A DNA stretch of 64,000 nt from Phyllosticta citribraziliensis (GCF_038025025.1 NW_027117345.1:1426001-1490000); one strand, 5' to 3'; numbered from the stretch's first letter, positions 1 to 56,786 are shown. Program-made: numbers and translations. The notes: generated from the letters alone by a model not told the origin.

Positions 1-2320
1 TGTGTTGTGGTCGCCGTCGAGGATTTGCTGGGCAGAGTTGAAGAGTATGACGGTGCACGAGTGGAATGACCAGTAGCTGGAAGAATTGTGTCAGCGCACG
101 GAACTGGCGGATGCGATGAGATTTGTTTTGATTCGGATAGCAGAAGAACAAAGAACCGAAAGTAGGCGGGGAGGTTGACGCGTTCACTCATTCAGCTGTC
201 TTCCTGAAGAGAGCATATTGTTGCGAGCTTGTTGGAGACAAACTTACATCAAAACCCAGCAGCGTCTTGTCATGAAGCTGGTAAAATCAATCAGCGACAT
301 GATGCGTGTCATTTGCTGCGCAGCCATGGAGCAGCGTGCGCGATAGTCTTGGACCTGAGTGTAGGCGACGTCGAGATTCCACCTGGACTGGATGCGGGCG
401 TTGGAAGCATTCAGCAAGACCTGCCGGTAGAGGGAGATGATGGCTCCAAGATAAAACATGTGGAGCATCAAGATGGCTCTTCTTTGGAAAAAGTTGACGA
501 CTGAATACTTGTTCTGGTCTATCAGAGTTGAGAGATGCATTGACGGAGGTAGTTCGTTGTACCAAGCATCGAGCGTCTCTGTGAGTCTTGATATGTGCTC
601 AGCCCTAACGTCTGTGGCGGCCTGATGGACTGTGAGTTCCGCTATGTCTCTGGACACAAGTCCAATCTTGCTTCCTTGAGCGTGGATGGCATCATTCATT
701 GATGTGCATTCGCAGGGAGGTATCCACGCATGCTAGAAATATGAGCGAAAGGTCTAGCTCTAATCACTGGTGATCTTACTGTGAGATCTTCCATGCTAAC
801 ATCAGACTTGTAACCAAGAGTGGTGGATAGCCAACTGTCGACCGTTAGCACAAATGTCCTGTCCGGAGCGAAGATAACAAACCAGTCCATGAATATGAGG
901 GTGTTCATGACCTTGCGAGCGGATTTTTGATCCGTTTGGTCAGGCAGGTCTTCTTCAAGAGTGGGAAATTTCCAACGTGAAATCTTGAGACCAGCAGCTG
1001 ATGAATTGCGTCAGCTTACTTAGTTCTGAACTTCAACAATTGAATTGCGGTTGGAAGTCAAGGGTCATCATTTCAAACACGAAACAGATCATCAAAAGAG
1101 CCAAGGAGCTGTGACGTACTGATTATGTGACGAATAGCCATGTGCTTTTCGAGGAGGGAGTAAACAGAGAAAAGAAGCAGAAACTGCATGATGGAATAAT
1201 CGTCAAACTTGGAAATAGAAGATTCAAAGGCCCAAATGGCTGAAGCGTACAGACCCTGCCTTATTGGCTCGGGCATGCAATCACAGTCGTAATGCGCGCC
1301 AATTGCAGCTATTACCAGCGCGATGATGAGGCTTTTGTGATCCACGGGTCCTGGCCTGAAGACTTGGTCCAACATTGCGTCCAACTGATCACTGGACACC
1401 AGGTAGATTATGCAGCCAGTGCCGACTATGCAACATTGGGCACCTTTCCGAACAGTCTCTTCCGGCGGGAGCGATATGGTGTCGTAAAAGGGGACACCTG
1501 CGGCAAGAAGCTCAATCCTCTTTGCTCTAAGCTCTTGCACTGCAAGTGCCACAGAAGCGCGGCAATCCTCAATGATGGAATGCGTCGAGTCGTGCCTCGT
1601 CTTTTTCTGGGGATTGGCATTGGCACCCGCAACGCTCTCAGACGAGTGGCTACTCGTCTCGCAGGCAGGTTCGTTGGATGGTGCCTGACGGGTGACCTGG
1701 GCAGAATCCTGTCGAAAGTGCCGGAGGTAGCTTTGGTAGCGTCGATAATTCTCAGTCTTCTTGTACTCGTCCATCTGGGCCTCGTACTCTTGAAAAGCCT
1801 GCGCGGCTTGACGCTCCCAGGCATGCTTCAAGTCTGGTGCAAGGGATTGCCATCTCCTGCCGACTTCGCGAGCGGACTCTTCGAAGGAAAGCGAGAGATT
1901 GGTGAAGTCAGGATCCCTTCGCTGGGCGTTGGCAAAATTGACGTAGGCGGTTTTTGGCTTTTTCGGGGCATGAACGTCGGGACGAGGTTTTCGTCGATAT
2001 CTCCTTTTTTGTCTTGCATTGACGACTTCGGGCTGAGTCGGTTGCTGCGCATCGTTTCCATTTACACGGCACTGCGACGGAGGGGTCTGACCGCGAGAGT
2101 TCTTTCCAGAGCTGGCAGGCTGGTCGCACTGAAGGCCCCGGCACGATGCGATTTCGCGCTGCAATGTGCGGCGATGGCCCAGCTTGACACCGAGAAGCGT
2201 CAGATCCTGTTCGGTAATGTCACACAAGACGTCCCAAGAGTCAAAGCCGTTGTCGAGCAGAATTGGCAAATACTGGCCAAGACCTAGACGGCAGAGAATG
2301 TGACGCAACTCAACGGACAT
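1..2320 (-). CDS. SAM-domain + HMG-box + fungal-TF middle-homology-region protein (multi-exon, 3' end runs off the window)
   Basis: N-terminal SAM-like LCRLGLGQYLPILLDNGFDSWD...LGVKLGHRRTL; HMG box PKKPKTAYVNF...VGRRWQSL...YKKTENY; C-terminal MHR-like segment (LDAWYNELPPSMHL, LHMFYLGAIISLYR). Introns include 998-1119 and 77-247; the frame continues IYWSFHSCTVILF to position 1. Confidence 0.8.
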
Positions 2321-3188
2321 GGTAAATGCTGTGGAAGGCGAAGTATCAATTGTTTTCTTTTACAACGTTGTCAGGAAGACTAGGCGGTGCACGGCGACAT
2401 TTCTGGAAAAGTCGAAATGCAGGCTGTTTTCATGTAATGGGTGGCCAGAGGCAGCCCGGGGCGGTAGGCGGAGTCACGAGGGCTCGGGCGCCTCGTGAGG
2501 TGTCGGATGCGCGATCAAGAACGACTTGGCGAAGGATTGGACGGTGGGGAGAAAAGAAAAACGCGGCAAGCAGACGGGTGAGAGAGAGCGAGGGTCTACA
2601 GATGCATATGGAAAAGCAAAGAGTTCATTGTGGTGTCGTGGCGCCCCCCGGCCGGCCGATGCTGGGACAGTCACGTGCGCTGGGAGCCGGGGGCGAGATC
2701 GAGTGTCTGCCGTCGGCATCTGGCTGTCCGCAGCGCAACCTCACCTCCGCTGCGAGCCTGTTCATGCAACTCCCTTGCCTTCCCCACGCCTCGCACGTGT
2801 CGTCGCCACTTTGATCCTTGCATGGACAGGGACAGCCTCGCCGAATGCGCCAAGAAAGCTTGACCTGGACCTCTCCCCAGCCAAACTCCCGCTTCAACCA
2901 CCTACCATCCATCCACATCCATCTGCAGCGGACAACGGTCCGTCGTGGAAGTCGCTTTGGAGGAATGGATCGGCTGTGCCTTCCGCCCAACGGGCTCACC
3001 TGCCCGCGTCCCATCTACAACATCCTTGTCTTGCGCGTCTGCGAACATCTCGAATCTGAGACTTGCTCTCTTTGTCCCTATGCGCGCCCTACGTCAGCAC
3101 GAAGTTGGTGTGATTGCGTCCATCATATGGCGGACTCGCCCTTGATTTCGCCGCAGCCCAGTGTCCTGTCACCCGCTTTTTCCTTGCC

Positions 3189-6100
3189 ATGAGGCGACTA
3201 TCGCACAGAGAAGAAGAGGCTCCCGATTGCCTTCAAGTCCTGACCGAGTTCCTTGACCATGATGACCGGCCCTCGTTCATCCTCGATTCCCACAACAATG
3301 AGCGAGAATCCAGAGTCATCTACCGGAATCGCGCCCTCGAGGACTTCATCACCCGTCTGTCGGCCCTCCATGGCGACGCCACTTTCTCCGACTTTGAAGC
3401 CTGGGCCGTCAAGTTTGAAACCACAAAAGCGTCGGCCTCGCGGACTGGCGCTGCCTCCAAAATGAGCTTTGGTGGGTGGTACTGGACCAGCACCATCTTG
3501 AGACACGAGTGGAAAGCCGTTTGTGCCATTTCCTCCAACGACGATCGATATGGCGATCGCTTCGAAAGCGAGGACACCGAAGTTTGGGCACGGCGCTCTC
3601 TGACGTCTTCCGAAATTGCGCTTCCGTCTCCCACCGTATCTCTGGATGAGCTGCGCTTAAAGGCAGGCTTGAGCGATGATGACTCATCATCTGCAGATGA
3701 AATGGTCCTCACTCCTTTGCCGTATGCTCACTGCCTTGATTGGACCCGAAACCCTCCTCCGCATTTGTCAGGCTATCGCCGGTTTATCCTCGACCACGAC
3801 TGGTCTTCGACGCCATTGGGACCCATTGGATCTTGGGATGACCGCCTACGCCAGAATGTCGTTATGATTATGGCCAGTCCTGATCCTCGCCTGATCTTGT
3901 GGGGAAACGAACTATGTTTGCTTTACAACGAGGCATGCTTGGCCCTGATCGGACAAAAACACCCTTCTGCGCTGGGTCACGGACCGATGCATGTCTTTTC
4001 AGAAATCTGGCAACCCCTGAAAAGTATTGTTAAACGCGCCATGCACCAGGGGGTGGCTACCAGAGTTCAGGATTTGGAATTGATGATTGATCGAGATGGC
4101 CAGTTTGGGCCAGAGGAGACGTACTGTAAGTTGCTCTTGCAATGCGCCCTCTTCCGCAAATCTCCCCCACAGTCAACGATGCTGGGAAAACGCTCTATGC
4201 CTCCATTGGCTAAAATTGACCAGGGTCTTTCACGATGCTGCCCATCATTGGCCCCGATGGAACTGCCGTCGGAGCGCTTGACGAATTCGTCGAGTCGACT
4301 GGGTCTGTTATTGGAGTGAGACGAATGAATACGCTCATCGCCCTCGGAGAGAAGGCTTCCTCAGCCAGGTCCATTGAAGAGCTCTGGACATTGGTATTGG
4401 AGGGTCTAGAGCCAAACAACCAGGACATTCCATTCGCACTGCTCTACTCCGTCAATGAAAACGATGAGAATGGCCAGGATGACCTGAGAGAACACTCTGA
4501 TTTCGCCCACTCATCGCGTCCAAAGCAGTGCGTTCTGGAAGGGACCATTGGGATCTCTAGCGATCATCCGGCTGCCATTCCAAGCTTTGCTCTCACCGAA
4601 GGAAGTGATGGCTACGCCTTGCCCTTTAGACGCGCATGGACATCAGCGAAGCCTAGCTTTCTGCAAGCCAAGAACCAATCTCTTCCTTTGCCACTGTCGG
4701 ATATTCGGACTGAAGGGAGAGGTTTCAACGACGCCACAAACACTGCGATCGCACTACCAATCCCCCCCTTGAGCGGCGCTAGCATCAGAGGCTTCTTGTT
4801 GCTTGGACTCAATCCCAGGCGTCCTTACGATGAGGACTACCAAGTTTTCATCAGACTTCTCAACGATCGCCTGGTGAAGGCCGTGGCCTCTATTATTGTA
4901 CCTGAAGAGCAACGCAGGAATCGAGAACTCATGGAAGCCAACAACACCCGCCACGACAAATTTTCTCGGGAGCTTGAACAGCGCAGGCAAGAAGCCGAAT
5001 CAAGCGAAGCAACATTCACTGCCCTCGCTGAGTCGGCCCCCATAGGCTGCGCTGTTTTCCAAGTTGACGGCCGTACGTCGTCTTCTAGTGTGCTCTCTTT
5101 GCGAAAGCTAATTTCTTGCAGAGCCTCGCTGGATGAACCAAGCTTATCTCGATCTAGTCGGTCTGAAACGCGAAGAAATGCCCAATGGAATGTGGTCATA
5201 TACTGTTCTCCCTGAAGACCAAGAATTCGTCGAGGATCAATGGCGGAAACTGGCGACTGGCCAAAACGTCGACCCGTTCGAATTTCGCGTGAAGAGACCA
5301 TTTCGAGCGTCCCAAGATGATGATACACAAGTAATCGAGTACTCCTGGATACTAGCCAATGCATTCCCCGAATTAGACGACGCAGGGGCTCCACAGAAGA
5401 TATTGGGATGGCTCACAGACATTAGCCATCAGAAGTGGAGTCAGCATCTGCAGGCGCAGCGTCTAGAGGATGCGTTGGAGACAAAAAGGCAAAGCGAGAA
5501 CTTCATAGACATGGTACTTTTCCCCAGATCACTACGAGAACCTTGACTAATCACAGACGACTCGGAAAGACTTCACACGAAATGCGGAATCCAGTGAGTA
5601 TTGGCCCTTTGAAAATATACACAAGAAGTGGGTATCCACGCGAGGCCACACGGGCTTTCATACAAGGGAAACCAGACGGGACAAACATGATCCAACAGCC
5701 CTCCGCCACTAAATGCTCCTCGGGCATCTTCTTACTGACTGCCCTTTTGTAGCTCTCGGCCATTTTGCAATCTGCGGACGGGATTCTCGGAGTACTCAGA
5801 TATCAGCGGGATGGTAAGTCTTTTGGGACCATCTTGATCGACAACGACTGATTTTCCTGCCAAAAACAGGCAACAAGATCAACTATTTACCGCGAGAACC
5901 GCTGATTCTTGACATGGAAGCCCAGGAAATCATCATCGACAGCGCTCAAACTGTCATTCTCTGCGCACAGCACCAGAAGAGAATAGTTGACGACATTGTA
6001 AGCCGTTGCTCTCTCGTTCATCGCTCGTCTTGCTGACTATCATTAGCTTGTGAGTTCCTTCCATTCTTTGCCTATGCCTTGCTTCAACGAACAAATTTGG

Positions 6101-7824
6101 CAAGTAGAGCCAGAAGCGGCCCTTGACGGCTCTGGTAGACATCTTCTCAAGCCCAGAAACATGGATTGACATCAATCAAGACCAGAAAGTTGCTTGAATG
6201 CTTGTTGACTGTAAACAGACACTTTCCAAACTTGACTCAAATCTCCTCGTGATATCTCCAGACGTCATTCAGCCCGCGACCCTGGTTGAGCGTGCCATCA
6301 AGATGTACGAAGCGGAGCTAAATAGCGCTCGGATACGTCTCAACTTCCAGATTCATCAATCCTACGATGACCTCTCCATCGACACTGTCTTCCTTGATCC
6401 ATCGCGGGTTTTGCAAGTCCTCATAAACCTCATCACCAACGCCATCAAATTCACTCGTGACCGAGAAAAACGCGTCATTACGATCTTTCTCTCTGCTTCT
6501 CACAAGAGACCTTCCTCGGGACACGACAACCTAGCGTATATTCCTAGACGAGCGAATCGACCGGATCATAATTTGACTGAAGAATGGGGCCCAGGCGAAG
6601 ACATTCACCTCCAACTGGCGGTTGAAGATACGGGCAGGGGATTGTCGCCAGATGAAATGAAACTACTGTTCCACCGCTTCTCTCAGGCGAGCCCAAAAAC
6701 CTATGGAGAGTATGGCGGCAGCGGCCTGGGTCTCTTCATCTCGAGAGAACTTACTGGTAATGCATTTCCCGGTCATGTGGAGATTGATCTAATTCCTTGC
6801 AGAGCTTCAAGGCGGTCAAATAGGCGTGGCCTCCAAAGAGGGTCGAGGCAGCACCTTTGCCTTTTACATCAAAGCCAGGCGCTATGTTTCTCCACCCTCT
6901 TCGACCCCTCCGCCGGCTGCACTCATCCGCCCCTCTCCAATGCATACAGCCCCGCTCCGCCGAGTGTCCATGTCCAAACTCGGCCCCATGTCTCTGCCTA
7001 CTCTCTCCAGCCGCACAATTGATCTCATGCCTTTAACCGCCCCGACGGATCCGTCATGGACAGTCCAAAACCCAGGTGGGCGAATCACGTTCCAAAACGT
7101 TTCGCCTGTCACACCCCTCGCAGCAGACTCGAGCGCACGTTTCCCAGGTCTCAAAGTGCTAATAGTCGAAGACAATGCCATCAACCAAAAGGTCATGGCG
7201 CAGCAGCTGCGACGCGCCGGATGCGAAGTGCTCGTCGCCAGCCATGGAGGCGAGGCGCTCGCAATGCTGGGGCGAAGTACGTTTGCAGCGGCCGCCACTC
7301 CTCCCATTCTGACACCAACCTCGACCTCTACGCTCCTCGACTCACCCTCTTTCCCGCGTCCACCGTCATCAGACTCTCCGAGTGATTCACCCATTCCCCC
7401 TCTCGAGACCTCGATCCTCGACTTTGCTGCGGCCCACGCCGCCGCCGCCGCTACCGTTGGCCATGGAGACGGCAGCAGCAGCAGCAGCAGCAGCTCTTCG
7501 CCCAGTAGCACGCAAGCGCCCACCAGCGTCGCCACGCTGCCACGACCCCCGCCGCTCGAGATCTCGGTGATGCTCATGGACCTGGAAATGCCCGTCATGG
7601 ATGGGCTGACGTGCGTGCGGCACATTCGGCACATGCAGGGGACGCGCTCGCTGACGCGCCATGTCCCCGTCATCGCCGTCACGGCCAACGCGCGCAGCGA
7701 GCAGATCTCGCGCGCCATGAAAGCCGGCATGGACCTTGTCGTCACCAAGCCATTTCGCATTCTGGAGCTCTTGCCGCTCATGGATGAGTTGGTGGCTAGA
7801 GTAGAGAGAAACCGGGCGAGGTAG
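3189..7824 (+). CDS. Hybrid (two-component) histidine kinase: PAS/GAF-like sensors, HisKA, HATPase_c, receiver
   Basis: DWSSTPLGPIGSW PAS-like region; H-box FIDM-TSHEMRNP-LSAI; N-box QVLINLITNAIKFT; G boxes DTGRG and GGSGLGL; receiver VLIVEDNAINQ...LMDLEMPVMDG...VTANA...KPF. Introns at about 4126-4222, 5073-5121, 5514-5569, 5594-5752, 5813-5869, 5998-6046, 6050-6218 and 6757-6802. Confidence 0.93.
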
Positions 7825-8607
7825 CCGTGGTCGTGGGGGAGTTGATGGGTCTTTGCGGAGAGCAAGAACCAGTGGATGGTGCTGCCGGGCTGTAAATAGA
7901 TCTCGGCTCACGACTCTGGTAGATTTTCTATCCGTCGCAGCACGCACATATGGAACCAGCCTGGCCCCTATCCCTAGCAACAAGCAACGAGGTAGCTAGA
8001 TTAGGCAGAGTGGAGGGGAGTTGGGTGTTGGTGGAGAGAGAAGCGTGGTTTAAATCCTAATACACATTCGGTCGCTCACTTGTAAGGCAATTGTTTTCGT
8101 TTCCTTGCTGGACTCGTCGAAGTCGTTGTTGTCAGTGAGCACTCTGCCCAGCAGCAGTGCGGCATACTCCCACGCGACTCACATGCGCAGCGTGTCGCGC
8201 CGCAGACCAAAAGCCAGAAGTCGGAAGAGATGCTCGGCTGAAGGCCCAGCGAAGCTCACTCACGTATAGCACCGCAACACGACATGACAAAGAAAGTTTG
8301 GGCGTGATGCACGAGACAAAGGGTAGACAGCCAGTCAGCCAGCCAGCCAGCCAGCCAGTCAGCCAATCAACCAGAACCAGCGTGAACATGGGGTAGCGAT
8401 CAAGTGAACAAACGAGTTAAGCGAGCAGGCGAACAAACAAACGAACGCTCCATCTCCGCATCTCCCCCATCTCCCTGCGGCCCCACCCCCCAGGTCCCCA
8501 CAAACTCTGTAATCCCTGCAGCACGTGGGGTCCGCACGCCTTCGGAAAAATTCTTCGACAGCCCGGCTCTCGGCTCCGCTTTGCGCCTACCACCGCTGCT
8601 GCTGTTA

Positions 8608-8770
8608 AGGAGGAGGAGGAGGAGGAGGAGGAGGAGGAGGAGGAAGGCGAGTAAGGGATCACCGATGCCCTCTTCCCTCTTGCCTCGCCGTATTTTCCGC
8701 CGTCCGCCTTCCGGAGTCCGATTGGACTGGACTCGACTGGACTGGAGGAGGAGGAGGAGGAGGAGGAGGA
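8608..8770. repeat. Two trinucleotide microsatellites: (AGG)12 at 8608-8643 and (GGA)9 at 8744-8770
   Basis: Read directly from the sequence; intergenic. Confidence 0.9.
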
Positions 8771-10366
8771 CATGGTGGGGGGCGGCGGACACATTCCCGC
8801 CATCCACTCACTCGGTGCTGCTGGGATATTCCTTGGTTGATTGGACCCCCTCCCTTACCTTTCATCATACTGTACCGTACATACATAGCGCAAGGCTGGC
8901 TGGCCCTGCGACGTGTTTCGCACCCTTGCGCGCCGCGTTTCGGGAAGGGTCGGCGGTGCGTTCCTCTTATCTCTCTCCCTCTTATCTGATTCAGCAGCGG
9001 CAGCTGCTGCAGGAAGATGGGGATTGATTGGTTGACTGAACAAGTGGCTGAGGTTGATCTCTCTGGGCTTGATCTGGTTTGGTCTGTTTTGGCGTTGGTT
9101 GGTTGGAGGAGAGAAGAATGTCGCCATGAGCTTGCTTGCTCTCTTTCTCTGTGGGGTGCGGTGGGAACTTGTTCGGGGTGGCATGTGGACATGCCTGCGC
9201 CCTCTGTGCAGCAATGGGAAAATGGGGACGTCAGATGGGCGACTTTGTTCTTTTGAGCGAGGGCAGTGGGGGTGAGGCAGATATGAGGGATGGAGGGTGC
9301 GAGGGAGTCGAAGCATCTTCTCTGGCGTTGGTTGGATTCGATCAGGCCACGCGCCCGACGGGCTGGTTGACGCAGAGGGAAAGAAAGGAAGGAAGGAGAT
9401 GGTGGGATACAGGCGCGCAGTGGCTTGCGGAGGCACATGGGTTGAGCAGCCAAAAAAACGAAAGCTCCGCTAAAACAGACATTGTAGCAGCAGCATGCAT
9501 GGTAGATGACCCAACCACCCAATCAATCTTCTGAGCTGAGCGGGCGGACACCTTCGACCGGGTGCTTGGATTGCGAAGGAAGATAATGGTATGCTATGGT
9601 ACAATACCCACGTGGCTAGTGATACAGATATGTATGCGGAGAGCAAAAAAGAGTGAGGCGCCCACGCGTTCGCGACGACGGACGTATCGGTACAGCCAAT
9701 GAAAAGACGCAAAGACGACGGGATAGACCATTGCGAAATTTGGTTTTTGTTTTTTGACAGTTTGATGAGGAAAATAAAGAGAAGATGCAGACCCCACGCT
9801 TCCTTTGCAAACCTGCTTGTGAACTAACTACCTACCTAGCTAGTTTGATTGTGATTGATCAATCGACTGGAAGAAAAAAGCAGAAGTGATCAATGAAGAA
9901 GCAAGCCGCTGAAAGAACAAGCCCGCAGCAGATGAAAGCAATCTCAACAAGCACGCCGCGCCACGCTATCCGCCAGATAATGCCCGTTTTGAGTTCAAAT
10001 CGAACTGAAGACAAGGGGAAAAGAGGGGGAATCATTCATGTTGGATGCGTGTGCCATTGAGACTCCTGAATCAAAGCAAAAAAGGAAGATGATGAGGAGG
10101 AAAGAAAATAGCAGGAGAACAAAACAAAGCACCCGAAACGCCTCGCTTTGTTGGCTACCAGCAAGCAAGCAAGCAGAATGAAAGCGCTGGAAAAAATCCA
10201 GCTGCAGAATCACGACCATGACATGTCGAGAAGAAGGAAAATGGTGTCGTCTCGCTTGCTTTTTGAATGACGTGGCAGACAGCAAAGGTATCTTTGTTTC
10301 CGTGAGAAAGAAGAGAAAAGAAATTCGTCCATCAATGAACATGGAGCGCGTCATGCGAGACAGCGC

Positions 10367-12028
10367 TCACTCGCCCTTTGCGCCAGCAATGCCGCGCGGG
10401 TGCGCCGTGATGCGAGTCTTGCCGTGCTCGTCGACAGGTGGGTAGCGAGCGCGCAGCTCGAGGTCATCGAGCGGAATGGTGGAACGGATGTACTTGTGGC
10501 TGGCCGGGTCAATGGGCTGGTAGTCCCACGACTCGAAGCGACCCTTTTTGAGGGCGCTCCAACAGAGGCGGCGCTGTCGCTGAGAGGCAAGAACGTCGTC
10601 GTGAATCTTTTGCAGGTCCCAACGCCGCTTGACCTCGTCGGCAAAGGCGGCGGCCACCTTGGCGACGGCCGGGTCAGATGACTCGGCCACGTTGCGCAGC
10701 TCGTCTGGGTCCGATTCGAGATCAAAGAGCTGCGGCGGGTCCGCTAGACAGGCCACGTACTTCCAGCGGCCGCGTCGGATCATCATGACAGGTGACACGG
10801 TGCCCTCGCCCATGTACTCGCCCAGGACCTCGTCCTTGACCCGGTGTCCGTAGAGCGCGGGGTACAGACTCTCGCCGTCAATCGCGAGTCCCGTGTCCAT
10901 GCGCCCGCCGGCCAGATCCACCAGCGTCGGAAGCAAGTCCATGGTCGATACCGATTCGGAGACGCGGCGGGGAGAAAACCGAGCTGGATAGTTGATGATA
11001 AGGGGCACCCTCGCGCTGTGCTCGTGCCAAGACATCTTGTACCAGAGATTGCGCTCGCCCAACATGTCGCCGTGATCACCACTGAAAACCACGATCGTGT
11101 TGCGGTCCAGCTTGCAGTTCTTGAGCACCTGGAGCAGCTTGCCCACCTGGTCGTCCACGTAGCTGCAGGCGCCGTAGTAGGCGCGCCGGGCTCGCTTGAT
11201 GGCCTCGTCGGGGACGGGGTTGTTCCACAAATCGATGCACTCCATCAGGCGCTTCGAGTGCGAATCTTGCTGGCTCTGATCAAGGCGCGTCTTGGGCAGC
11301 GGAATGTCGACGTCCTCGTATCGGTCCCAGTAATCCTCGGTGATGGCGTACGGATCGTGAGGGTGAGTCAGAGAAACGGTCAAGCAAAACGGACGCTGGG
11401 CGTCGCCCTTTCTGACGTGGTCGTACAGGTACTGGGTGCTCTTGTACATGACCTCCTCGTCAAAGTCGAGCTGATTGGAGCGAACGCATGGACCAGCTTG
11501 CAGAACCGACGCCATGTTGTGGTACCATTCCTGGCGCTCCTCGGGCTTGTCCCAATTGACGGACCAGCCAAAATCGCCGGGGTAAATGTCCGAGGTGAGG
11601 CGGTTCTCGAAGCCGTGCAGCTGGTCGGGGCCAATGAAGTGCATTTTGCCGGCCAGAGTTGTTTCATAGCCCTCCTTGCGCAAGTAGTGGGCGTAGGTGG
11701 GGACGTCGGCGTTCAGGTGCGAGGCATTGTCGTAGGCCCTGATTTTGTGAGGAAGCTGGCCGGTGACCATGACGAAGCGGGAGGGCGCACAGAGCGGCGC
11801 GTTGCAGTATGCGCGGTCAAAGACGACGCCAGATTCGGCCAATTTGTCCAGGTGGGGGGTTTTGATGGGCGAGGTTGGGTCGTGCATTTTGAGCAGAGGC
11901 GCGGACATTTGGTCGGCCATGATGTAGAGAATGTTGGGACGGACGGAGAAGTGGTCGACGGGAGGAACATGAGCATTTTCGGCCTGGCCGTTGGGCGGCG
12001 TGTCGGGCAGAGTGGCGTGTGGAGGCAT
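10367..12028 (-). CDS. betC: Choline-sulfatase (BetC-like), intronless
   Basis: RPNILYIMADQ; formylglycine motif LCAPSR; GKMHFIGPDQLHGFE; SLTHPHDPY; DHGDMLGERNLWYKM; choline-sulfatase C-terminal WDYQP...LDDLE. Likely start MPPHATL at 12028. Confidence 0.92.
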   Translation of the reverse strand: MPPHATLPDTPPNGQAENAHVPPVDHFSVRPNILYIMADQMSAPLLKMHDPTSPIKTPHLDKLAESGVVFDRAYCNAPLCAPSRFVMVTGQLPHKIRAYDNASHLNADVPTYAHYLRKEGYETTLAGKMHFIGPDQLHGFENRLTSDIYPGDFGWSVNWDKPEERQEWYHNMASVLQAGPCVRSNQLDFDEEVMYKSTQYLYDHVRKGDAQRPFCLTVSLTHPHDPYAITEDYWDRYEDVDIPLPKTRLDQSQQDSHSKRLMECIDLWNNPVPDEAIKRARRAYYGACSYVDDQVGKLLQVLKNCKLDRNTIVVFSGDHGDMLGERNLWYKMSWHEHSARVPLIINYPARFSPRRVSESVSTMDLLPTLVDLAGGRMDTGLAIDGESLYPALYGHRVKDEVLGEYMGEGTVSPVMMIRRGRWKYVACLADPPQLFDLESDPDELRNVAESSDPAVAKVAAAFADEVKRRWDLQKIHDDVLASQRQRRLCWSALKKGRFESWDYQPIDPASHKYIRSTIPLDDLELRARYPPVDEHGKTRITAHPRGIAGAKGE

Positions 12029-13413
12029 TGCGACGAACGATGAGAGGGGACGTTGTCGAAGGTTGGGCGTGTGAAAAGATGAAGGAGAGTGGGAGCAGCG
12101 CAAGAGCAGACAAGGAGGGAGCGGAGAGTAAAGTAGCAATTTGAGGAGAGCAGTCACGCGACAGGGAGGGTGGTCGTGGCGGCGGCGAGGCTCAGATCGA
12201 GGCGACAAGCCAAGGGAAGGGAAGAGAAGCGGAAGACTTGTCGCGGCAGTCCGACTGGCTAGGTGAGGTGGGAGAATGGCAGGCGCCTGACAGGATCGCG
12301 GTTCGTGAAGGGAGAAGAAAGAAGGGTGGTTGCTTTATAACATGAAGATGGGATGGGTGACGGCGACGGTGACGGAAGCGTACGGGCTGGCCTAGCGCCC
12401 AAGATTGCGTGATTGGAAACGCCATGCGGCCAGGAGACGGATGTAGCACGTCAATTCCAGGCGCAATGGCAAAATGTTGCGACAAGCTGGCTGAGCCCGT
12501 CGAGCCTCGGAGCCTGGAGGTTTGGAGTCCGGCGTCGTCAGCTTGTGCGAGTTTGCATTTCTCAGCTACCTACCTTGGAGACAGGAGGCAAAAAGAAACG
12601 GGAAACGACCAAACGAGGCACCCACACGACGCAATCAATGCCTGTGTGGGTGCAACAGATAGAGAAGGGTCGCAGAGGGTTACACAGAGAGGGCGACGAC
12701 TTGTCACTTTATACCCGTCGACGTTGGCGACGATGGCGAGCACCTGCATATCCTCCGCGACGACGCCATCCAACGACGCCATCATTGGTGTTTTGGTCCG
12801 GGTGGCTGCATCCTCGGCCTGCCATCCCGGCTCTTGCAGGCCAAGCATGCCAAGCTTCCAAGCCGCACCGCACCGTACGCATCAGATGTGCCATCGAAAA
12901 AGACGCCGACCTTCGCCTCGCTGCGCTGGACGTCTGAATACCCTCTCGCCGTCGCCCGCCGTGTCCGCCAATCAGCGACAACGCCGTGGAGCCTGCCCCT
13001 ACCACCAAACATCATCACCAACCGCCTTTGTTTGACACCTGTCAAATCCATGCTTCACATCGATTTGGAGACACTCCATCTCTACCACTATAAACTATCC
13101 TCGCCTGCTTTCCACGGCGAACCCCATGGAGCTACCGACTATCCTTCAGATCAAGCAAGACTACTTCCAGAAAACTCCGTCATAACCACCACAGCAATAC
13201 ACCGTCCACCGACTCCTCTGCCTAGTCATGTCTCCCCATACATTCCATTACCCTGGCGTCGCATGAAAAGGCCCGTCTCGGAAATCCAGCAGCAAAACGA
13301 ATTGAAAAAAAGAAGAAGCAACGAGACCTGGTCGCCGGAACGATCCAGCTTTAAGAAAATGGGTATCATATGCGGTCAACTTCGAGCGTTGAAAATGACG
13401 GAATCGACAATAG

Positions 13414-50108: not shown

Positions 50109-52046
50109 CTACACCGGGATATTCTTTGCCAAATACCCCAGCCACCTGGGCAACGTTCGTCCCCACCTCTTCTCCTCACGCGCCGGGGCAACGCGAATGG
50201 CATCCTCAATCGCACTGGCCCAGCGCACGAGACTCGCCTCCGACCATGCGGTGCCCATGAGCGCTAGCCCAAACGGCATGCCGGAGTTGGCGTCGTCGAC
50301 ACCCGCCGGCACAGTGATCATGGGGTAGCCCGCCTGCGCCGCGACCTGGTACGTCTGGCCGACGTCGGGCGGCACGAGCAGCGCGTCGACGCCCTGCAGC
50401 GCAGCGTCGATGCCGCGCTCGCGCGACTGCGTCTGACAAAAGGCCAGCGCCTGCCAGTACGTGGCGTCACGGGTGCCGTTGGTCGCCAGCGAGGCGAGGA
50501 AGCCGTCCTGGCCCGAGTAGAAGGCCGGGATGCCGCGGGGCCAGGGGAAGCCGCCCTCGGTGCCGTCATTGTCGCGATTGTAAGCGACAATGTCTGCGAG
50601 GGAGCGGATGCGTGTGTTGGAGAGTTCAGAGAGGTACGTTGCGATGTTGCGGTAAAAGTCGACGGCAACGACAGTGTATTCGGATTCGTTGGCGAAGCCG
50701 CGCGTCGAGCCGTAGTCCCAGTCCCAGCCGTCGGGACTGACGAGGAGGGAGCGATTGGGGAGCTCGGTGTTGTTGACAATTGTTGCTCCTTGGGTCTTGA
50801 GGTAGTCAAGGATGGAGACGAGCGTTGATTGTTGTGCACTTGAAGCATATTGCCAGAAGCTGTCCCACGGAATACCGAAGGTCGCATTCGAAAGTGCGGT
50901 ACGATTAGAGAGGAATTGGGCGAAGCCACCGCTGGGTGTCTTGTTGTCCTGCGCCAAAGTGTAGTTATCTCGCGAGTCGATACCGTAGATGGCATCCAGA
51001 GCGTACACTGCATCTCGAACACTCTTGCCGAAAGCCCCAACTGTGTCTTGATGCTCGCTTTCAGGAATGACGCCGGCTCTGGAAGTCAGTCCAACGGTAG
51101 GCTTGATTCCAACAACACCATTGCGTTCTGCAGGATTGATGACACTGCCGTCAGTCTCCGTGCCGAGGGCGAATGGCACGACATTTGCTGCAACGGCGAT
51201 AGCACTGCCGGAACTGCTGCCTCCTGGCGTGACAGTCAGGTTGTACGGGCTTCGAGATTGATCTCCGCGTGCAGAGAATCCTTCGCTGTAGTTGTTGCTG
51301 TTTACGCTCAGTGTCAAGTTGTTTTACGAAGTGGAGAATCCGCAAGATACCTTCGCATATCGGCCCACTCAGAGAGCGTAGCCTTGCCGAAAAGGACTGC
51401 TCCAGCTTCCCTCAAGCGCGCCACGACGAATGCATCTCTTGGAACGATTGATCCGAGAAGGGCCCAGGATCCGGCGGTTGTTTCCATCTTGTCTTTGGAT
51501 GCTATGTTGTCTTTGACGAGAAATGGAATACCATGGAGAGGACCACGCACTTTGCCTGACTTTCTCTCTTCGTCTAGAGCTGCAGCTATAGAGAAGACAT
51601 CGGGATTGAAATCCAGAACGGAGCTGTCGAAGTCTTAGATATGTGCTGCCACTGAAAGCATCCAAACTTTTGCAGCAAGGGCATGGGAAACATTGAAGGG
51701 AAGAAGCAAAACGACTTTAGACGTACCTGATGTACTGATCGACCTGCTGCATCCGGCGCATAAAGCAAAAAACCAGCTCCTCCGAAGTTAATTTTCCAGA
51801 AGTCATGACATGTTGCAGCTCATCAATAGAAGCCTCCTCCAGTTGGACATCCCGACACCTCTCCATAGGGAAGAGTGACGACGAATTGGCATTCTGAAGC
51901 GATGGGAATTGGTACGGAAACGGGTCCTGGAGAGGGTCAATGGCCAAGGCTCCTGAGTAGAGCGAGTTGTTTGTCCCGTAGCCACGCGCAAGCACAAACA
52001 GAGAGCCGAGTGCCAGTAGGCCCGTCAAGGAAGCGCGAGGAGGCAT
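50109..52046 (-). CDS. Amidase-signature family enzyme with probable signal peptide
   Basis: RGPLHGIPFLVKDN (catalytic Lys), PGGSSSGS, GTETDGS; hydrophobic N-terminus; introns 51624-51726 and 51298-51350. Confidence 0.92.
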
Positions 52047-52399
52047 TGATGCGCCGTCCAGGGGAAGCTTGAAGTCGGACGTCAGAGTCGACTCATGGCT
52101 GCGGCTGAAAAGTCTACAGGGCTGTTATGTATCGTCGCACAAGGCCCCGTTTGTGCAACGGTTATCGCAAAGTTCCAGAATCGGACGACCTGAGAGAAAG
52201 GTGGGGGATGTTGTGCAGGGTGCAGGGACCATGTCGATAAGCTGCAGCGGGAGACGGCGGCTAACGAGATGCAGACCGGGTGACGTCAAACATCGTCAAA
52301 CATCGTCAAACAACATTCGGCTTTTTCTCTCCATCGCCGCTGTCAATCTCGCCCATTCGTCCTCGCTCTCTCCGCATACCCTCACATAACGCACTCGCC

Positions 52400-52859
52400 A
52401 TGTCTGAAGTCGTCGTTTTCGCCGTTGCGACCCCCAAGCCCAAGCACGTGGAAAAGGTTTTTCTCAGACCCCTGGAGCTTTCATCCCAAGAATCTGGAAA
52501 GGAATCCCGGCTAACCTTGAAACCTTGTCCAGTTCCTTGAGCTCATCAGCGCCCACGCCGCATTCGTCCAAGCCAACGAGCCCGACACCCTGCGCTACCA
52601 AGTCCACAGGGAGTCCAACAACGACAAGATCCAGATTGTCGTCCTCGAGACGTGAGATCAGACCACTCCATTTGTTTCCATCACACTCGAGTTGACTGTG
52701 CCTCTGCCTCTCAGATACAAGAACCAGGCTGCCATGGACGCGCATATGACAAACGAGAAGTTCCTGGCTATGGTCAAGGAAATCACGGAGAAGGAGATTC
52801 TGGCTCAGCCGCTCCAGATCATCTCCACGTCTCCCGCCGCCGGCTTCGCCAGCCGCTGA
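52400..52859 (+). CDS. ABM (antibiotic biosynthesis monooxygenase)-type dimeric alpha/beta-barrel protein; not captured whole in the ORF track
   Basis: Three exons give MSEVVVFAVATPKPKHVEK-FLELISAHAAFVQANEPDTLRYQVH...VVLET-YKNQAAMDAH...GFASR*. Confidence 0.82.
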
Positions 52860-53043
52860 TGCGGCCCGTCGTCCGGCCTTCATTCCGTGTACATACTTGA
52901 AGGTAAGGCTCTCAATGTGTATATAGCTGCATGAATACGAAAGATGCGATGCGGAAAAGACTCGCTCATGGCTATGCACTCGATGCTCCAACTTCCGTGA
53001 GACTGAAACCGAAATCGCAAATGAGGAAATCATCCACCCGGTC

Positions 53044-53911
53044 TCATTCCCAGTAGTATGAGTACATGTCTATGCCGACAAACTCGTCGGCGTAGGATTT
53101 GGCGGCTTGCTCGCCACCTGCACCCGCGCAGACAATCAGAGGCAAAAAGTGCTCTGCGCGACCGCGCGGATGCATGTCGTAAGAGGCGGGAAAGTTTCTC
53201 CAACCTGCAAGCTTCCTTTCCCGCTCCTCAACGTTGGGTTCTTTTGTCGCATCGGTTACGGCGTTGCTCCACGCATCACTGCGAGCCCTGAATGCCGGCT
53301 CCATGGTGATGCCACTAAACATATGGCGGAGGTTGTGCAAAGTGGCGAAACCAGAACCGACAATGGCGACATTTTGCTCTCTGAGCTTTGCGAGGGCACG
53401 TCCCATCTTGAAGTGGTCGTGGGGGTCCTCAGAGTCCAAGACGGATACTTGGACAATGGGGATATCGGCCTTGGGATTTATCAGGAGCATGGGAATGAAG
53501 ACGCCATGGTCCCATCCTACGACTGTCAACAAATTCAGTCTTCCAAGGATGGTTGTCTCCCTTACCTCTCTCCTCGTCGAATTCAGGCTGCAGTCCCACG
53601 TTTGAAAAAGCGTCTGCCACGTCTTTGGCAACGTCGGGCGAACCCGGGGCGTCGTACTTGATCTCGTAACTCTCTGGTGGGAAGCCGTAGTAGTCGTATA
53701 AAAGGCCATGCCTTTTGGCGCTCGATATGGTGGGATTTCTTGCAGACCAGTGGGCGGTGACGAGTACTATTGCGCGCGGTGCTTCGGATGTTCCGAGTTT
53801 CAAAATGTCGGGGACTTTTTCCTTCATGGACTTGACAAGAGCCGCATGGCTAGGGTCGCCAAGAATAGGCATGGGGCCGCCGCCGTGGGAAACGCAAATG
53901 ACGGGTGCCAT
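53044..53911 (-). CDS. Extradiol ring-cleavage dioxygenase, LigB/DODA (4,5-DOPA dioxygenase)-like
   Basis: SHGGGP, VTAHW, YDYYGFP, RGWDHGVFIP (one intron at about 53517-53565), GSGFATHNL-like, HPRGRAEHFLPL. An in-frame upstream ATG lies at 54016. Confidence 0.9.
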
Positions 53912-54222
53912 GGTTGGGGTAGTCTGATTTGAGACGAAACGAAAGGGTTGCTGTAGGCTGGCGGCGGCAATGGGCAAGGCAGCGTAGAGGTAGCGAAGGC
54001 TAGCGAAGAGAGACATGACGAAACCGAGGGGGTTTGGAGGATTCATATGTACATTGGGCCAGATTGCGCTCGTCGTCTGGATTTGAAAGATCGGAAGGCC
54101 ATGGTTGAAACTTCCGGGTGACCAATCTTGAAGGCGGCGCGAGAGGAGCGGGCACCCATGAAGTGAGACGCGACTTGTTGTAATGCACCCGACGAGAGGG
54201 CGGAATGGCGCGAGGCTTTCCG

Positions 54223-54235
54223 CGGAACGGTTCCG
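54223..54235. promoter_or_regulatory. Candidate Zn2Cys6 binding site, palindrome CGGAAC-G-GTTCCG (CGG-N7-CCG)
   Basis: Perfect inverted repeat with CGG triplets in the shared promoter of the dioxygenase and the Zn2Cys6 TF. Confidence 0.4.
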
Positions 54236-54541
54236 AGCCTACCACCTCACCTCACCTTACCTTGCGAACACCAGCCAGGACCCAACCTCAACCAATACCA
54301 TCGCTCTAGCATAAGCTGCACGTACAACAACAATGAATATTTGCAACACCCATCACGACATGTCTCGACCGAGCTTAGACCAGTTCAGGGCCTAATCCAT
54401 GGATGGCTGTGCTGGCCGGCGACCGTGACTCGCGGCCACGACTTTCGGCTTTTCTGCCACCGGAAATTTGCCAGTTGGTTGACGTCGGAGCATCCACCGA
54501 CGACCCGGACCAGACCAACCAGCCAGACAAAGAAAAGAAAC

Positions 54542-56786
54542 ATGCGAAATCCAGTGGCATGCGTCTCGTGCAGAAACGCAAAGCAAAAGTGCATCCATCG
54601 CGACAAGCCTCCGTGCGATCGCTGCCAAGCTGCCGGCAAGGCTGATGGCTGCCGATTTCCTCCTCCTGGCACATCTGCAATACACAGGCAGTCCAAGCGC
54701 CGCCGTCTATCGTCTCATCAGTCCACTGGCAATCGTGTCAATGGAGCTCTCGGTCAACCCCATTCGCCCTCGGACAGCAGTCTCCAGCTAGCATTCCCAA
54801 ACGGGCTCGACACGTCGCTGAACGACGTCGACCCTTTCAACCTGCTGACCGATGAGGTGAAGAAGAGCTACCTACGCTGCTCGTACAAGTGGTGCTTTCA
54901 TCACACGCCGACCTTTTTGAATCGCGTCATTGAAAAGTCCCTCGACCCTTGGATTTCTTGGTCAATTCTGGCCCTTGCCGTTAGGTAGGCTCATCAGGTC
55001 GCTGGAGCCATAGCTCCGTCTACATCGTCCTCACGCTGCACAGGTTCAGCCGTCATGGTCCGGGCCCCTACGCGACTCCCACAGAGGCCAGCAACGCCTT
55101 TGCTGCTCATGCCAGGCAGATCCTCCAGCTCGAATTGGAGATTCCAAGCATCTCACGCATTCAGGCTCTCCTCATGCTGACTGGCCACGACTGGGGCGCC
55201 GGCAATGGTCGAAGAGCTTGGTTTTATCTGGGTATGGCCATCCGCATGGTGCAGATACTCAATTTGTGCGAGGAGCATTCGTTCCAGGAGACCACTGTCC
55301 CGACAGCTGAAGAGTTCATCGAAGCTGAGGAGCGCAGGCGAACAGCCTGGACATGCTTCCTCATGGACAGTCTCTTGAGCGGAGGCAAGGGCCGAAAGCG
55401 CTCACTCTCTTCTGTCGACATGCGTATCCAGCTGCCCTGTGAGAATGACATGTACATATTCGGGGAGCCGGTCCAGTGCGAGCGAATTGACCGCTCCTCG
55501 AATCCCCTTTTGTCCATGATTCCAACAGGTTCCACGGGCATGATAGGCTACAGCCTGCGCGTGGCCGATGTTTGGGGCGAGGTTGCGCATTGGGCTTGTT
55601 CCAAGACCGTCAACGATGAGCTGCCTTGGGATATCTCGTCGAGATTCAACCAGCTCTCCACCTCGCTTCAGACATGGGTCAATTCACTTCCGAAAAGGCT
55701 TCAGTACAGCATTCGAACACTGGAAGCACACAATGCGCTGGAGCAAGGGCAGGCATTTTGCTACATGCACTGTATCCACTTTATGAGTCTCATGTTCCTC
55801 CATCGCGCCTATCTACCCGTTCTGGGGCCGTCCGCAGACGCTTCGGCGAATTCCTCCGCCACGAGCGAAGAGAACAGAGATGCCTGGCTTCTGTGGCGTA
55901 AGACATCGCGAAAACAGCTCTTCCAAGTCGCGACCACAGTGTGCGACATGGTCAACGAAATGGTCTCTTTTGGCAGCTTCTTTCTCAGGGGTCTGGTACC
56001 TTGGGTCGGCTTCACCATTTACGAAGCTGTTGGCGTCATTGTGTATCGAGCCAACTTCCATTTCGACGAGGAGGACGACATGGGTAATGTCATTGACGAC
56101 GACAAGGAGAGAATCGTCCGCGGGTGTAGCTTCCTCAAGGACATGAAGGAGCAATGGCCCATGGCTCAACAATGGGTGAATATAGTCCGTCTGTAACAGG
56201 GTTGATGATGCTGACCGAGAAAGTTTGAAACGGTGAAGCGCATGCAAGCCTGCTATCGCAGAGTACGCAATGAAGGCGGTGGCAGCATTCCAGAAACGGA
56301 GCAACGAACAATCCGAAACGCCATAGTCGACTATGGGGCTCTCCAGCCGTCACCAGTGCAGGCAGAAGACGAAGTCAACACCCCGGCGGCTTCAAACGTA
56401 ATTGAATCCCTTCCCACTCACTCTCGTATCGAGAAGAAAAGCTGACCTTTGACCTCCATCATCAGCGGCCATCTCTCTCAACCGCCCCAAGCAACAACAC
56501 AACCACTCCAGCAAACACCACCGCCGCAACAGCGCCAGCAGCCGACCAGCCCCAGACAGGCCCTCCCTCGCGCACCTACTCGCCGCTACCGCAGCTCCCA
56601 GACGACGACGCTTTCTTCGAAGGCGACTGGTCCACCTTTGACGACGTCGCGCTGCAAAACGCAGACCTCGACGCCCTGTTCCTCAACGCGACGCAAGAGT
56701 TTTGGGGCGCGTTTCCCGGCGAGGTCGGCTACTTTGATCCGTCGCCTCCTTCCGGCCCGGACTTTAGCGGCATGTGGAGGAGTTGA
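54542..56786 (+). CDS. Zn(II)2Cys6 transcription factor with Fungal_trans domain
   Basis: ACVSCRNAKQKC...PPCDRC...C; AWFYLGMAIRM; EERRRTAWTCFLMD; acidic C-terminal tail; about 3 introns. Confidence 0.92.

Follow-up and report, generated by a model that had tools for sequence, protein, structure and literature searches.

Does a hybrid histidine kinase gene that stands head to head with the gene for a putative DNA-binding protein mark a dedicated sensor/output unit, or are the two ordinary neighbours? The question is raised by a stretch of 64,000 nucleotides from Phyllosticta citribraziliensis (Botryosphaeriales, Dothideomycetes; GCF_038025025.1 NW_027117345.1:1426001-1490000), which we call the window. 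At its left end, a hybrid histidine kinase gene (the kinase) adjoins a gene whose product combines a SAM domain, an HMG box and a C-terminal domain resembling the 'middle homology region' (MHR) of Fungal_trans factors (the regulator). A first interpretation made from the sequence alone, in the following the sequence-only reading, had likened this arrangement to a bacterial-style paired module. Its placement of the start codons, i.e., the kinase ATG at 3189 (+) and the regulator ATG at 2320 (-), head to head with 868 bp between them, was confirmed. It was also fair to presume that the way in which such kinases signal onward is unsettled (PMC8510515, PMC11224324, PMC13452588).

We favour a simpler interpretation. 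With a probability of about 70%, the two genes are an ordinary divergent pair inherited since the ancestor of the Botryosphaeriales, and the kinase signals through Ypd1. We prefer this reading because the regulator family has neither a receiver nor an HPt domain, whereas the kinase has a complete receiver that retains the two Asn residues associated with HPt recognition. Moreover, the adjacency was seen in one order only, and the kinase and regulator families differ in their range. Finally, an insert in the kinase receiver, the most evident candidate for a docking site, is missing from Diplodia, Lasiodiplodia and Saccharata, which nevertheless keep the adjacency.

Domain content of the kinase and the regulator

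Pfam analysis of the P. citribraziliensis NCBI protein P0001, to which kinase exon 1 of the window is 100% identical, found PAS_4 (4.9e-11, residues 582-698), HisKA (1.1e-5, residues 721-804; at 25.8 bits just below the cut-off of 26.9), HATPase_c (1.3e-20, residues 857-1001), Response_reg in two stretches (1.3e-19) and a weak GAF_2 match. With H729, the HATPase_c domain and a fused receiver that holds E1099, D1100, D1236, T1270 and K1292, the protein has the composition of a hybrid histidine kinase. These five receiver residues are invariant in an alignment of 17 kinases, as are N1101 and N1104. The first ~560 residues matched bacterial PAS_4/GAF_2 clusters at 0.97 in a feature search, and the precomputed domain lists for P0001 name PF26131 and PF08448. 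A local Pfam search with the N-terminal kinase exons alone returned nothing; PF26131 is found in the precomputed lists only.

N1101 and N1104 have the same spacing as the two Asn residues tied to HPt recognition in PMC11224324 (Paredes-Martinez et al.). The group XI receiver of C. thermophilum described there transferred poorly to HPt in vitro and lacks these two HPt-linked Asn residues. In contrast, the window kinase retains both. The nearest solved receivers were those of AHK4/CRE1 (2e-15 for AHK4), RcsC and Sln1, i.e., phosphorelay types. Between α2 and β3, the receiver is interrupted by a low-complexity insert. Of the 17 aligned kinases, only those of Phyllosticta and the relative P0004 have it; it is absent from Diplodia, Lasiodiplodia and Saccharata. 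As these three genera keep the adjacency, a role of the insert as docking site is weakened. The insert also holds a (GCA)7.7 repeat at 7472-7494.

Group XI is reportedly a class in the Catlett classification of fungal hybrid histidine kinases. For the window kinase, the label 'group XI' comes solely from the source name of its Lasiodiplodia orthologue P0373, 'Histidine kinase-group xi protein'. The group XI kinases MoHik8 of Magnaporthe oryzae, BcHK71/BcHK67 of Botrytis cinerea and hHK11 of C. thermophilum have the same PAS sensor, HisKA, HATPase_c and C-terminal receiver. The insertion in a receiver loop is a further similarity, such insertions being reported as common in group XI (PMC8510515). 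BcHK71/67 are reported to have nine transmembrane helices (PMC12733437), whereas none were noted in the window kinase.

For the regulator, the sequence-only reading had proposed a SAM-HMG-transcription factor architecture. Its SAM and HMG parts stand: Pfam found SAM_1 and HMG_box in the window's protein and each of them in 38/38 orthologues. In a PDB profile search with the regulator alignment, the SAM domain matched Caskin and Eph and the HMG box matched the HMGB1 B box (6.7e-15) and Nhp6A; the C-terminal domain matched nothing. The Fungal_trans part of the proposal was borne out only weakly. The window's regulator gave no PF04082 match in Pfam even at E ≤ 1, and matches among the orthologues were found in 9/38 at E ≤ 1 (best 28 bits; gathering score 23) and in 4/15 at E ≤ 0.01. 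In an hhalign comparison with the window's canonical Fungal_trans open reading frame (54985-56193), the motif region was aligned with an E value of 0.0037 and a probability of 8.9%. A feature search with regulator residues 250-830 returned only Fungal_trans clusters, with a score of 0.97. In its C-terminal domain, the regulator weakly resembles Zn2Cys6 factors with PF04082; unlike these, it lacks a zinc cluster, and its DNA binding would use the HMG box.

Neither Response_reg nor Hpt was found by Pfam in the window's regulator or in its 38 orthologues. Because the regulator has no phosphoryl-accepting domain, phosphotransfer from kinase to regulator in the bacterial style is excluded, as judged from domain content. 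The proposed bacterial-style paired module hence fails on two counts, i.e., both receiver and HPt domains are missing from the regulator, and the kinase already has a complete receiver of its own. The locus shares with bacterial histidine kinase/response regulator pairs that a kinase gene lies beside the gene for a DNA-binding protein and that this adjacency is kept among relatives. In contrast to the bacterial pairs, the partner cannot be phosphorylated on a receiver Asp, the kinase is a hybrid, the genes are divergent and not co-transcribed, and their adjacency is limited to one order. Open-access full-text literature contained no linked kinase-regulator pair and no divergently transcribed hybrid kinase gene in fungi, and nothing on the locus tags of the orthologues or on Phyllosticta kinases.

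Residues 1 to ~220 of the regulator share 38-45% identity with many SAM-HMG proteins of ~500 residues. An HMGB-type box likewise comes after an N-terminal SAM domain in PaHMG2 (Pa_1_7390)/NCU02819 of Podospora and Neurospora, Sordariomycetes proteins with SAM and HMGB_UBF domains (PMC3730723, Table 1). Compared with such short SAM-HMG forms, the window's regulator is ~300 residues longer and has the Fungal_trans-like domain, and the HMG box scores 30-38 bits in the long forms versus 50-59 bits in the ~500-residue short forms. The long forms made up a clade of their own against four short forms with a support of 100 (FastTree, midpoint root; PaHMG2 itself was not included). Named long-form regulators were, among the matches listed, all from Dothideomycetes, i.e., Pleosporales, Botryosphaeriales, Venturiales and several small orders; Mycosphaerellales and Dothideales had none among these matches. 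The open-access full-text literature held no account of the long SAM-HMG-MHR architecture, of SAM-HMG proteins in Dothideomycetes, or of their function.

Adjacency inside and outside the Botryosphaeriales

We read adjacency from consecutive GenBank accessions or locus tags, i.e., from consecutive annotated genes, which gives neither orientation nor distance. Species were counted only where both proteins came from one assembly; Diplodia seriata was left out, its matches coming from different assemblies. The kinase and regulator searches were word-based and considered at most 8000 candidates, so absences are weak evidence.

The orthologues were neighbours in 9/9 checkable species of the Botryosphaeriales, which belong to the Phyllostictaceae, Botryosphaeriaceae and Saccharataceae (Table 1). 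A regulator but no kinase was found among the matches listed for Aplosporella, Macrophomina, Neofusicoccum, Botryosphaeria and D. corticola. In both gene trees, the Botryosphaeriales form a well-supported clade in which Saccharata branches deepest; the pairing is therefore at least as old as the ancestor shared by the three families. Within the order, the kinase tree and the regulator tree both follow the species tree, as expected for vertical inheritance. The crown age of the Botryosphaeriales is given as ~109 Mya (million years ago) and the Botryosphaeriaceae/Phyllostictaceae stem as ~81 Mya (PMC9961722, Table 3). Gene order in Dothideomycetes is scrambled by intrachromosomal inversions, which are visible even between Phyllosticta species (bioRxiv 10.1101/2021.11.27.470207).

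Table 1. Accessions or locus tags of regulator and kinase in the species compared.
Species	Regulator / kinase
P. citribraziliensis	KAK7535175 / 76
P. citrichinensis	KAK8177857 / 58
P. capitalensis	KAK8245215 / 14 and KAL1388844 / 43
P. citriasiana	KAK7517574 / 75 and KAK7525973 / 74
P. citricarpa	KAK7569483 / 84, KAK7627253 / 54, KAK7563968 / 69
P. paracitricarpa	KAK7613746 / 45
Lasiodiplodia theobromae (three assemblies)	BFW01_g9603 / g9604, among others
Diplodia intermedia	SLS58_000942 / 000941
Saccharata proteae	KAF2087681 / 80
Parastagonospora nodorum (distant tags)	HBH56_084560 vs 151900; HBI56_015440 vs 131930; HBH52_080260 vs 165080

Outside the order, we scanned metagenome contigs with the regulator alignment and obtained 80 loci. 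Searched with the whole kinase by tblastn, these yielded nothing at E ≤ 1e-5; the regulator, used as a control, matched 80/80. Nine of the loci (L005, L006, L008, L009, L011, L012, L070, L079 and L080) hold a long-form regulator together with 2.5 kb or more of upstream flank and are Pleosporales-like (at most 88% identity to Paraphoma), Venturia-like or Tothia-like. A kinase of any kind was found in 0/9 of them. Their upstream neighbours were a ceramidase, an S58 peptidase, a nonribosomal peptide synthetase, a Ras/HET gene or another transcription factor, i.e., the neighbour of the regulator outside the Botryosphaeriales is lineage-specific in the metagenome loci.

In 3/3 isolates of Parastagonospora nodorum that list both, the locus tag of the regulator is distant from that of the nearest kinase relative. 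This kinase shares only 34% identity and sits on a long branch, and its orthology is therefore uncertain. Cryomyces, Aureobasidium, Leotiomycetes and Verticillium have further kinase relatives, and the matches listed included no long-form regulator from any of them. In the species and loci compared, the kinase-regulator link is confined to the Botryosphaeriales and absent outside the order. The sequence-only reading had named adjacency restricted to close relatives, together with a lack of co-expression or of a shared regulon, as the result that would speak against it; the adjacency does extend to nine of nine species in three families, and it was not seen outside the order.

The other side of the kinase offers one comparison. 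In the D. seriata model P0007, a MAD2/HORMA protein is joined to the kinase, whose receiver has lost its second half; two genes that lie side by side have probably been wrongly fused there. MAD2 was absent from the 64-kb window and from the 80 metagenome loci.

Gene structures, transcripts and the spacer

The kinase model runs from the ATG at 3189 to the end of the stop codon at 7824 and encodes 1317 residues in nine exons. The regulator model has five exons in the window and at least 644 residues, its 3' part lying past base 1; the annotated protein P0393 has 830 residues. Coordinates of all features are collected in Table 2. The reading frames of both models are open throughout, and full-length orthologues align along the whole length.

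Table 2. Features of the kinase-regulator locus, in window coordinates.
Feature	Position	Strand	Remarks
Regulator gene, SAM-HMG-MHR	1..2320	-	coding exons 2320-1120, 997-883, 834-780, 732-248, 76-1
C-terminal domain of regulator, ~residue 255 onward	1..1558	-	resembles Fungal_trans 'middle homology region'; no Zn2Cys6 cluster
HMG box of regulator, residues 119-187	1760..1966	-	HMGB/Nhp6 type; Pfam HMG_box 3.7e-9
SAM domain of regulator, residues 9-58	2147..2296	-	Pfam SAM_1 2.7e-8
Inter-ATG region, 868 bp	2321..3188		both 5' leaders and shared promoter space
Upstream open reading frame, 21 codons	3127..3192	+	in kinase leader; stop codon TGA shares bases with the kinase ATG (ATGA)
Kinase gene, hybrid histidine kinase	3189..7824	+	exons 3189-4125, 4224-5072, 5122-5513, 5570-5593, 5753-5813, 5870-5997, 6047-6049, 6219-6756, 6803-7824
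N-terminal sensor region of kinase, residues 1 to ~560	3189..4964	+	cytosolic; PAS-like and PAS_4/GAF-like
Phospho-accepting His codon, H729 (SHEMRNP)	5576..5578	+	in 24-nt exon; near-invariant among 17 kinases
Microexon CTT (Leu), 3 nt	6047..6049	+	inside HisKA helix, flanked by two introns
Receiver domain of kinase	7150..7801	+	phospho-Asp codon 7579-7581 (D1236, P0001 numbering)
Low-complexity receiver insert, ~95 residues	7276..7557	+	α2-β3; Ser/Ala/Pro-rich, poorly conserved

Both genes are transcribed and spliced. We placed contigs from four runs on positions 1-8000, of which X1 and X3 carry one organism label and X8 and X9 two others; the run type of all four is a guess, none being on record as RNA. 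The contigs skip the predicted introns of both genes at GT..AG ends, each intron in at least one run. In the regulator, the four joints are 76/248, 732/780, 834/883 and 997/1120; in the kinase, contigs were joined at 4125/4224, 5072/5122, 5512/5569, 5593/5753, 5812/5869 and 6755/6802. Joints at 6454->7564, 6454->6802 and 6872->7564 with loose ends were also considered; we read these as contigs of paralogous kinases placed on conserved motifs and not as splice forms.

The joint 5997->6219 of X1 and X3 carries CTT between its two sides, and a contig of X8 is joined 5997->6047. The 3-nt microexon is therefore confirmed. Its Leu is missing from the public models P0001, P0003 and P0373, and most orthologues read DDILTLSKLDS. 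The public kinase models are moreover partly truncated or fused, with lengths of 1085, 1055 and 756 residues and one fusion to MAD2.

The two genes lie on opposite strands at a distance of less than 1000 bp between 5' ends and thus form a divergent pair. In X1, contig cover reaches 2555 in the regulator leader and begins at 2966 in the kinase leader, which leaves no more than 410 bp between the covered leaders. In X8, which comes from a related organism, cover of the kinase leader begins at 2750. Contig ends do not equal transcription starts, depths were not used, and the uncovered interval 2556-2965 in X1 carries no evidential weight. The upstream open reading frame at 3127-3192 falls within the contig-covered kinase leader, and the ATGA overlap of its stop codon with the kinase start may couple termination to re-initiation. 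Rfam matched no family on 1-9000, and repeats in the spacer were short two-copy matches only. The X8 organism has a 20-base (GGGCT)4 insertion at 2991 in the kinase leader; over 2750-4125, its contig shows 163 differences and 32 gap letters.

We rejected the idea of HMG-box sites at this locus, as the core motif ACAAAGA is not enriched, i.e., seven copies were found in the window versus 7.9 expected, with a single spacer copy in the kinase leader. Divergent orientation applies to about one quarter of neighbouring gene pairs, and one to two adjacencies of a kinase with a transcription factor are expected per genome from gene numbers, both being reasoned estimates that were not computed. The head-to-head layout by itself is not beyond chance expectation.

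Other parts of the window were inspected as well. Downstream of the kinase there are GC-rich simple repeats in open reading frames without Pfam match, i.e., (CAGCCAGT)n at 8328-8374, (AGG)12 at 8608-8644 and (GGA)9 at 8744-8770. The next recognizable gene past the kinase encodes a choline-sulfatase-type sulfatase (10367-12334, -), and no signalling genes were seen near the pair. Side by side in 50112-56193 lie an amidase (50112-51323, -), a LigB-type ring-opening dioxygenase (53047-54238, -) and a canonical Fungal_trans factor (54167-56193, +), which may be a small catabolic cluster with its own regulator.

Competing explanations and significance

As an ordinary divergent pair, the locus would consist of two independent genes around a compact divergent promoter region, which would have stayed side by side since the Botryosphaeriales ancestor. 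The kinase, a soluble hybrid type with a PAS/GAF sensor, has the look of an ordinary entry point to the phosphorelay and would autophosphorylate on H729. From there the phosphoryl group would pass to D1236 in the kinase's own receiver, and then most likely to Ypd1, the general HPt protein, with Ssk1/Skn7 as the next stage. The regulator would be a nuclear SAM-HMG protein that presumably binds DNA, with a Fungal_trans-like domain instead of a zinc cluster. The adjacency may have been kept neutrally or through interleaved promoters, and the two proteins would not be a dedicated sensor and its output.

Many neighbour pairs survive comparable distances by chance, which fits this interpretation. 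Several points weigh against it. The order-wide retention of the pair is stated without a genome-wide background rate for neighbour pairs. The pair has been kept for ~81-109 million years (PMC9961722) in a class that shuffles its gene order (bioRxiv 10.1101/2021.11.27.470207). The other neighbour of the kinase, MAD2 in D. seriata, was not kept, which is a single comparison resting on a mis-annotation. Spliced contigs of both genes were present in 4/4 runs, a result that gives presence only and neither expression level nor co-regulation. Conserved divergent fungal pairs with short spacers are more often functionally related than poorly conserved ones (PMC2871058). The window pair resembles them in its head-to-head arrangement, its leaders at most 410 bp apart and its conservation over ~100 million years; it differs in that its products have no known functional relation. 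Finally, the use of Ypd1 by group XI kinases is an open question (PMC11224324, PMC8510515, PMC13452588), and for this reason a functional link between kinase and regulator is possible.

Most of these points bear on a first alternative, in which a shared promoter co-expresses the kinase and the regulator and both act in one pathway without direct contact. The regulator may then lie downstream through the phosphorelay or a MAP kinase, or may itself control the kinase gene. Adjacency in all nine species, the closeness of the covered leaders, the joint presence of spliced contigs in every run, the tendency of conserved divergent fungal pairs to be functionally related (PMC2871058) and the change of the kinase's 3' neighbour between Diplodia and Phyllosticta are all in line with it. 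They are set against the loss of the link wherever the regulator was seen outside the order and the different phyletic ranges of the two families. Furthermore, most yeast divergent pairs are differently regulated (PMC4551913), and ACAAAGA is not enriched, its only spacer copy lying in the kinase leader. We regard co-regulation within one pathway as doubtful, although it is the best placed of the alternatives.

A direct alternative effector would require that the kinase bypasses Ypd1 and that its phosphorylated receiver or its sensor binds and controls the SAM-HMG-MHR protein. The poor in vitro transfer to HPt by a group XI receiver (PMC11224324), the ~95-residue α2-β3 insert in the window kinase and the adjacency kept across the Botryosphaeriales are compatible with such a route. 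The insert, however, is of low complexity, poorly conserved and missing in Diplodia, Lasiodiplodia and Saccharata in spite of their adjacent genes. The receiver retains all catalytic residues and both HPt-linked Asn residues, membership in group XI is derived from the source name of one orthologue, and in Pleosporales the regulator family has no adjoining kinase. We therefore consider direct control very unlikely. The same low odds apply to its specific form, in which the group XI-type kinase of the Botryosphaeriales and its SAM-HMG-MHR neighbour would be a lineage-specific unit that bypasses Ypd1 and is kept in step by the shared promoter.

That the pairing is an annotation or assembly artefact, with one gene a pseudogene or a mis-joined model, might be suspected from the many short kinase exons, including those of 24 nt and 3 nt, and from the truncated or fused public models, but is already refuted by the contigs of four runs, in which every predicted intron is removed at GT..AG ends and the 3-nt exon is present, and has next to no probability given frames open end to end and orthologues that align throughout.

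On present evidence, the kinase and the regulator are more likely an ordinary conserved divergent pair. Two modest gains last irrespective of how they are related, i.e., RNA-supported gene models, including a 3-nt microexon that is absent from public annotation, and the recognition of an uncharacterized SAM-HMG-MHR architecture restricted to Dothideomycetes. The broader interest comes from the so-called 'fungal Hpt paradox', the presence of many hybrid kinases versus one HPt protein in filamentous fungi (PMC13452588); whether every one of these kinases uses that protein is debated. A regulator that has stayed beside one such kinase for ~100 million years is a candidate for an alternative output that can be tested cheaply. 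Should the link be real, it would be a first handle on kinase-specific outputs, and the lineage-specific unit would then be an actual case of the 'alternative effector' that has been put forward as a solution to the fungal HPt paradox.

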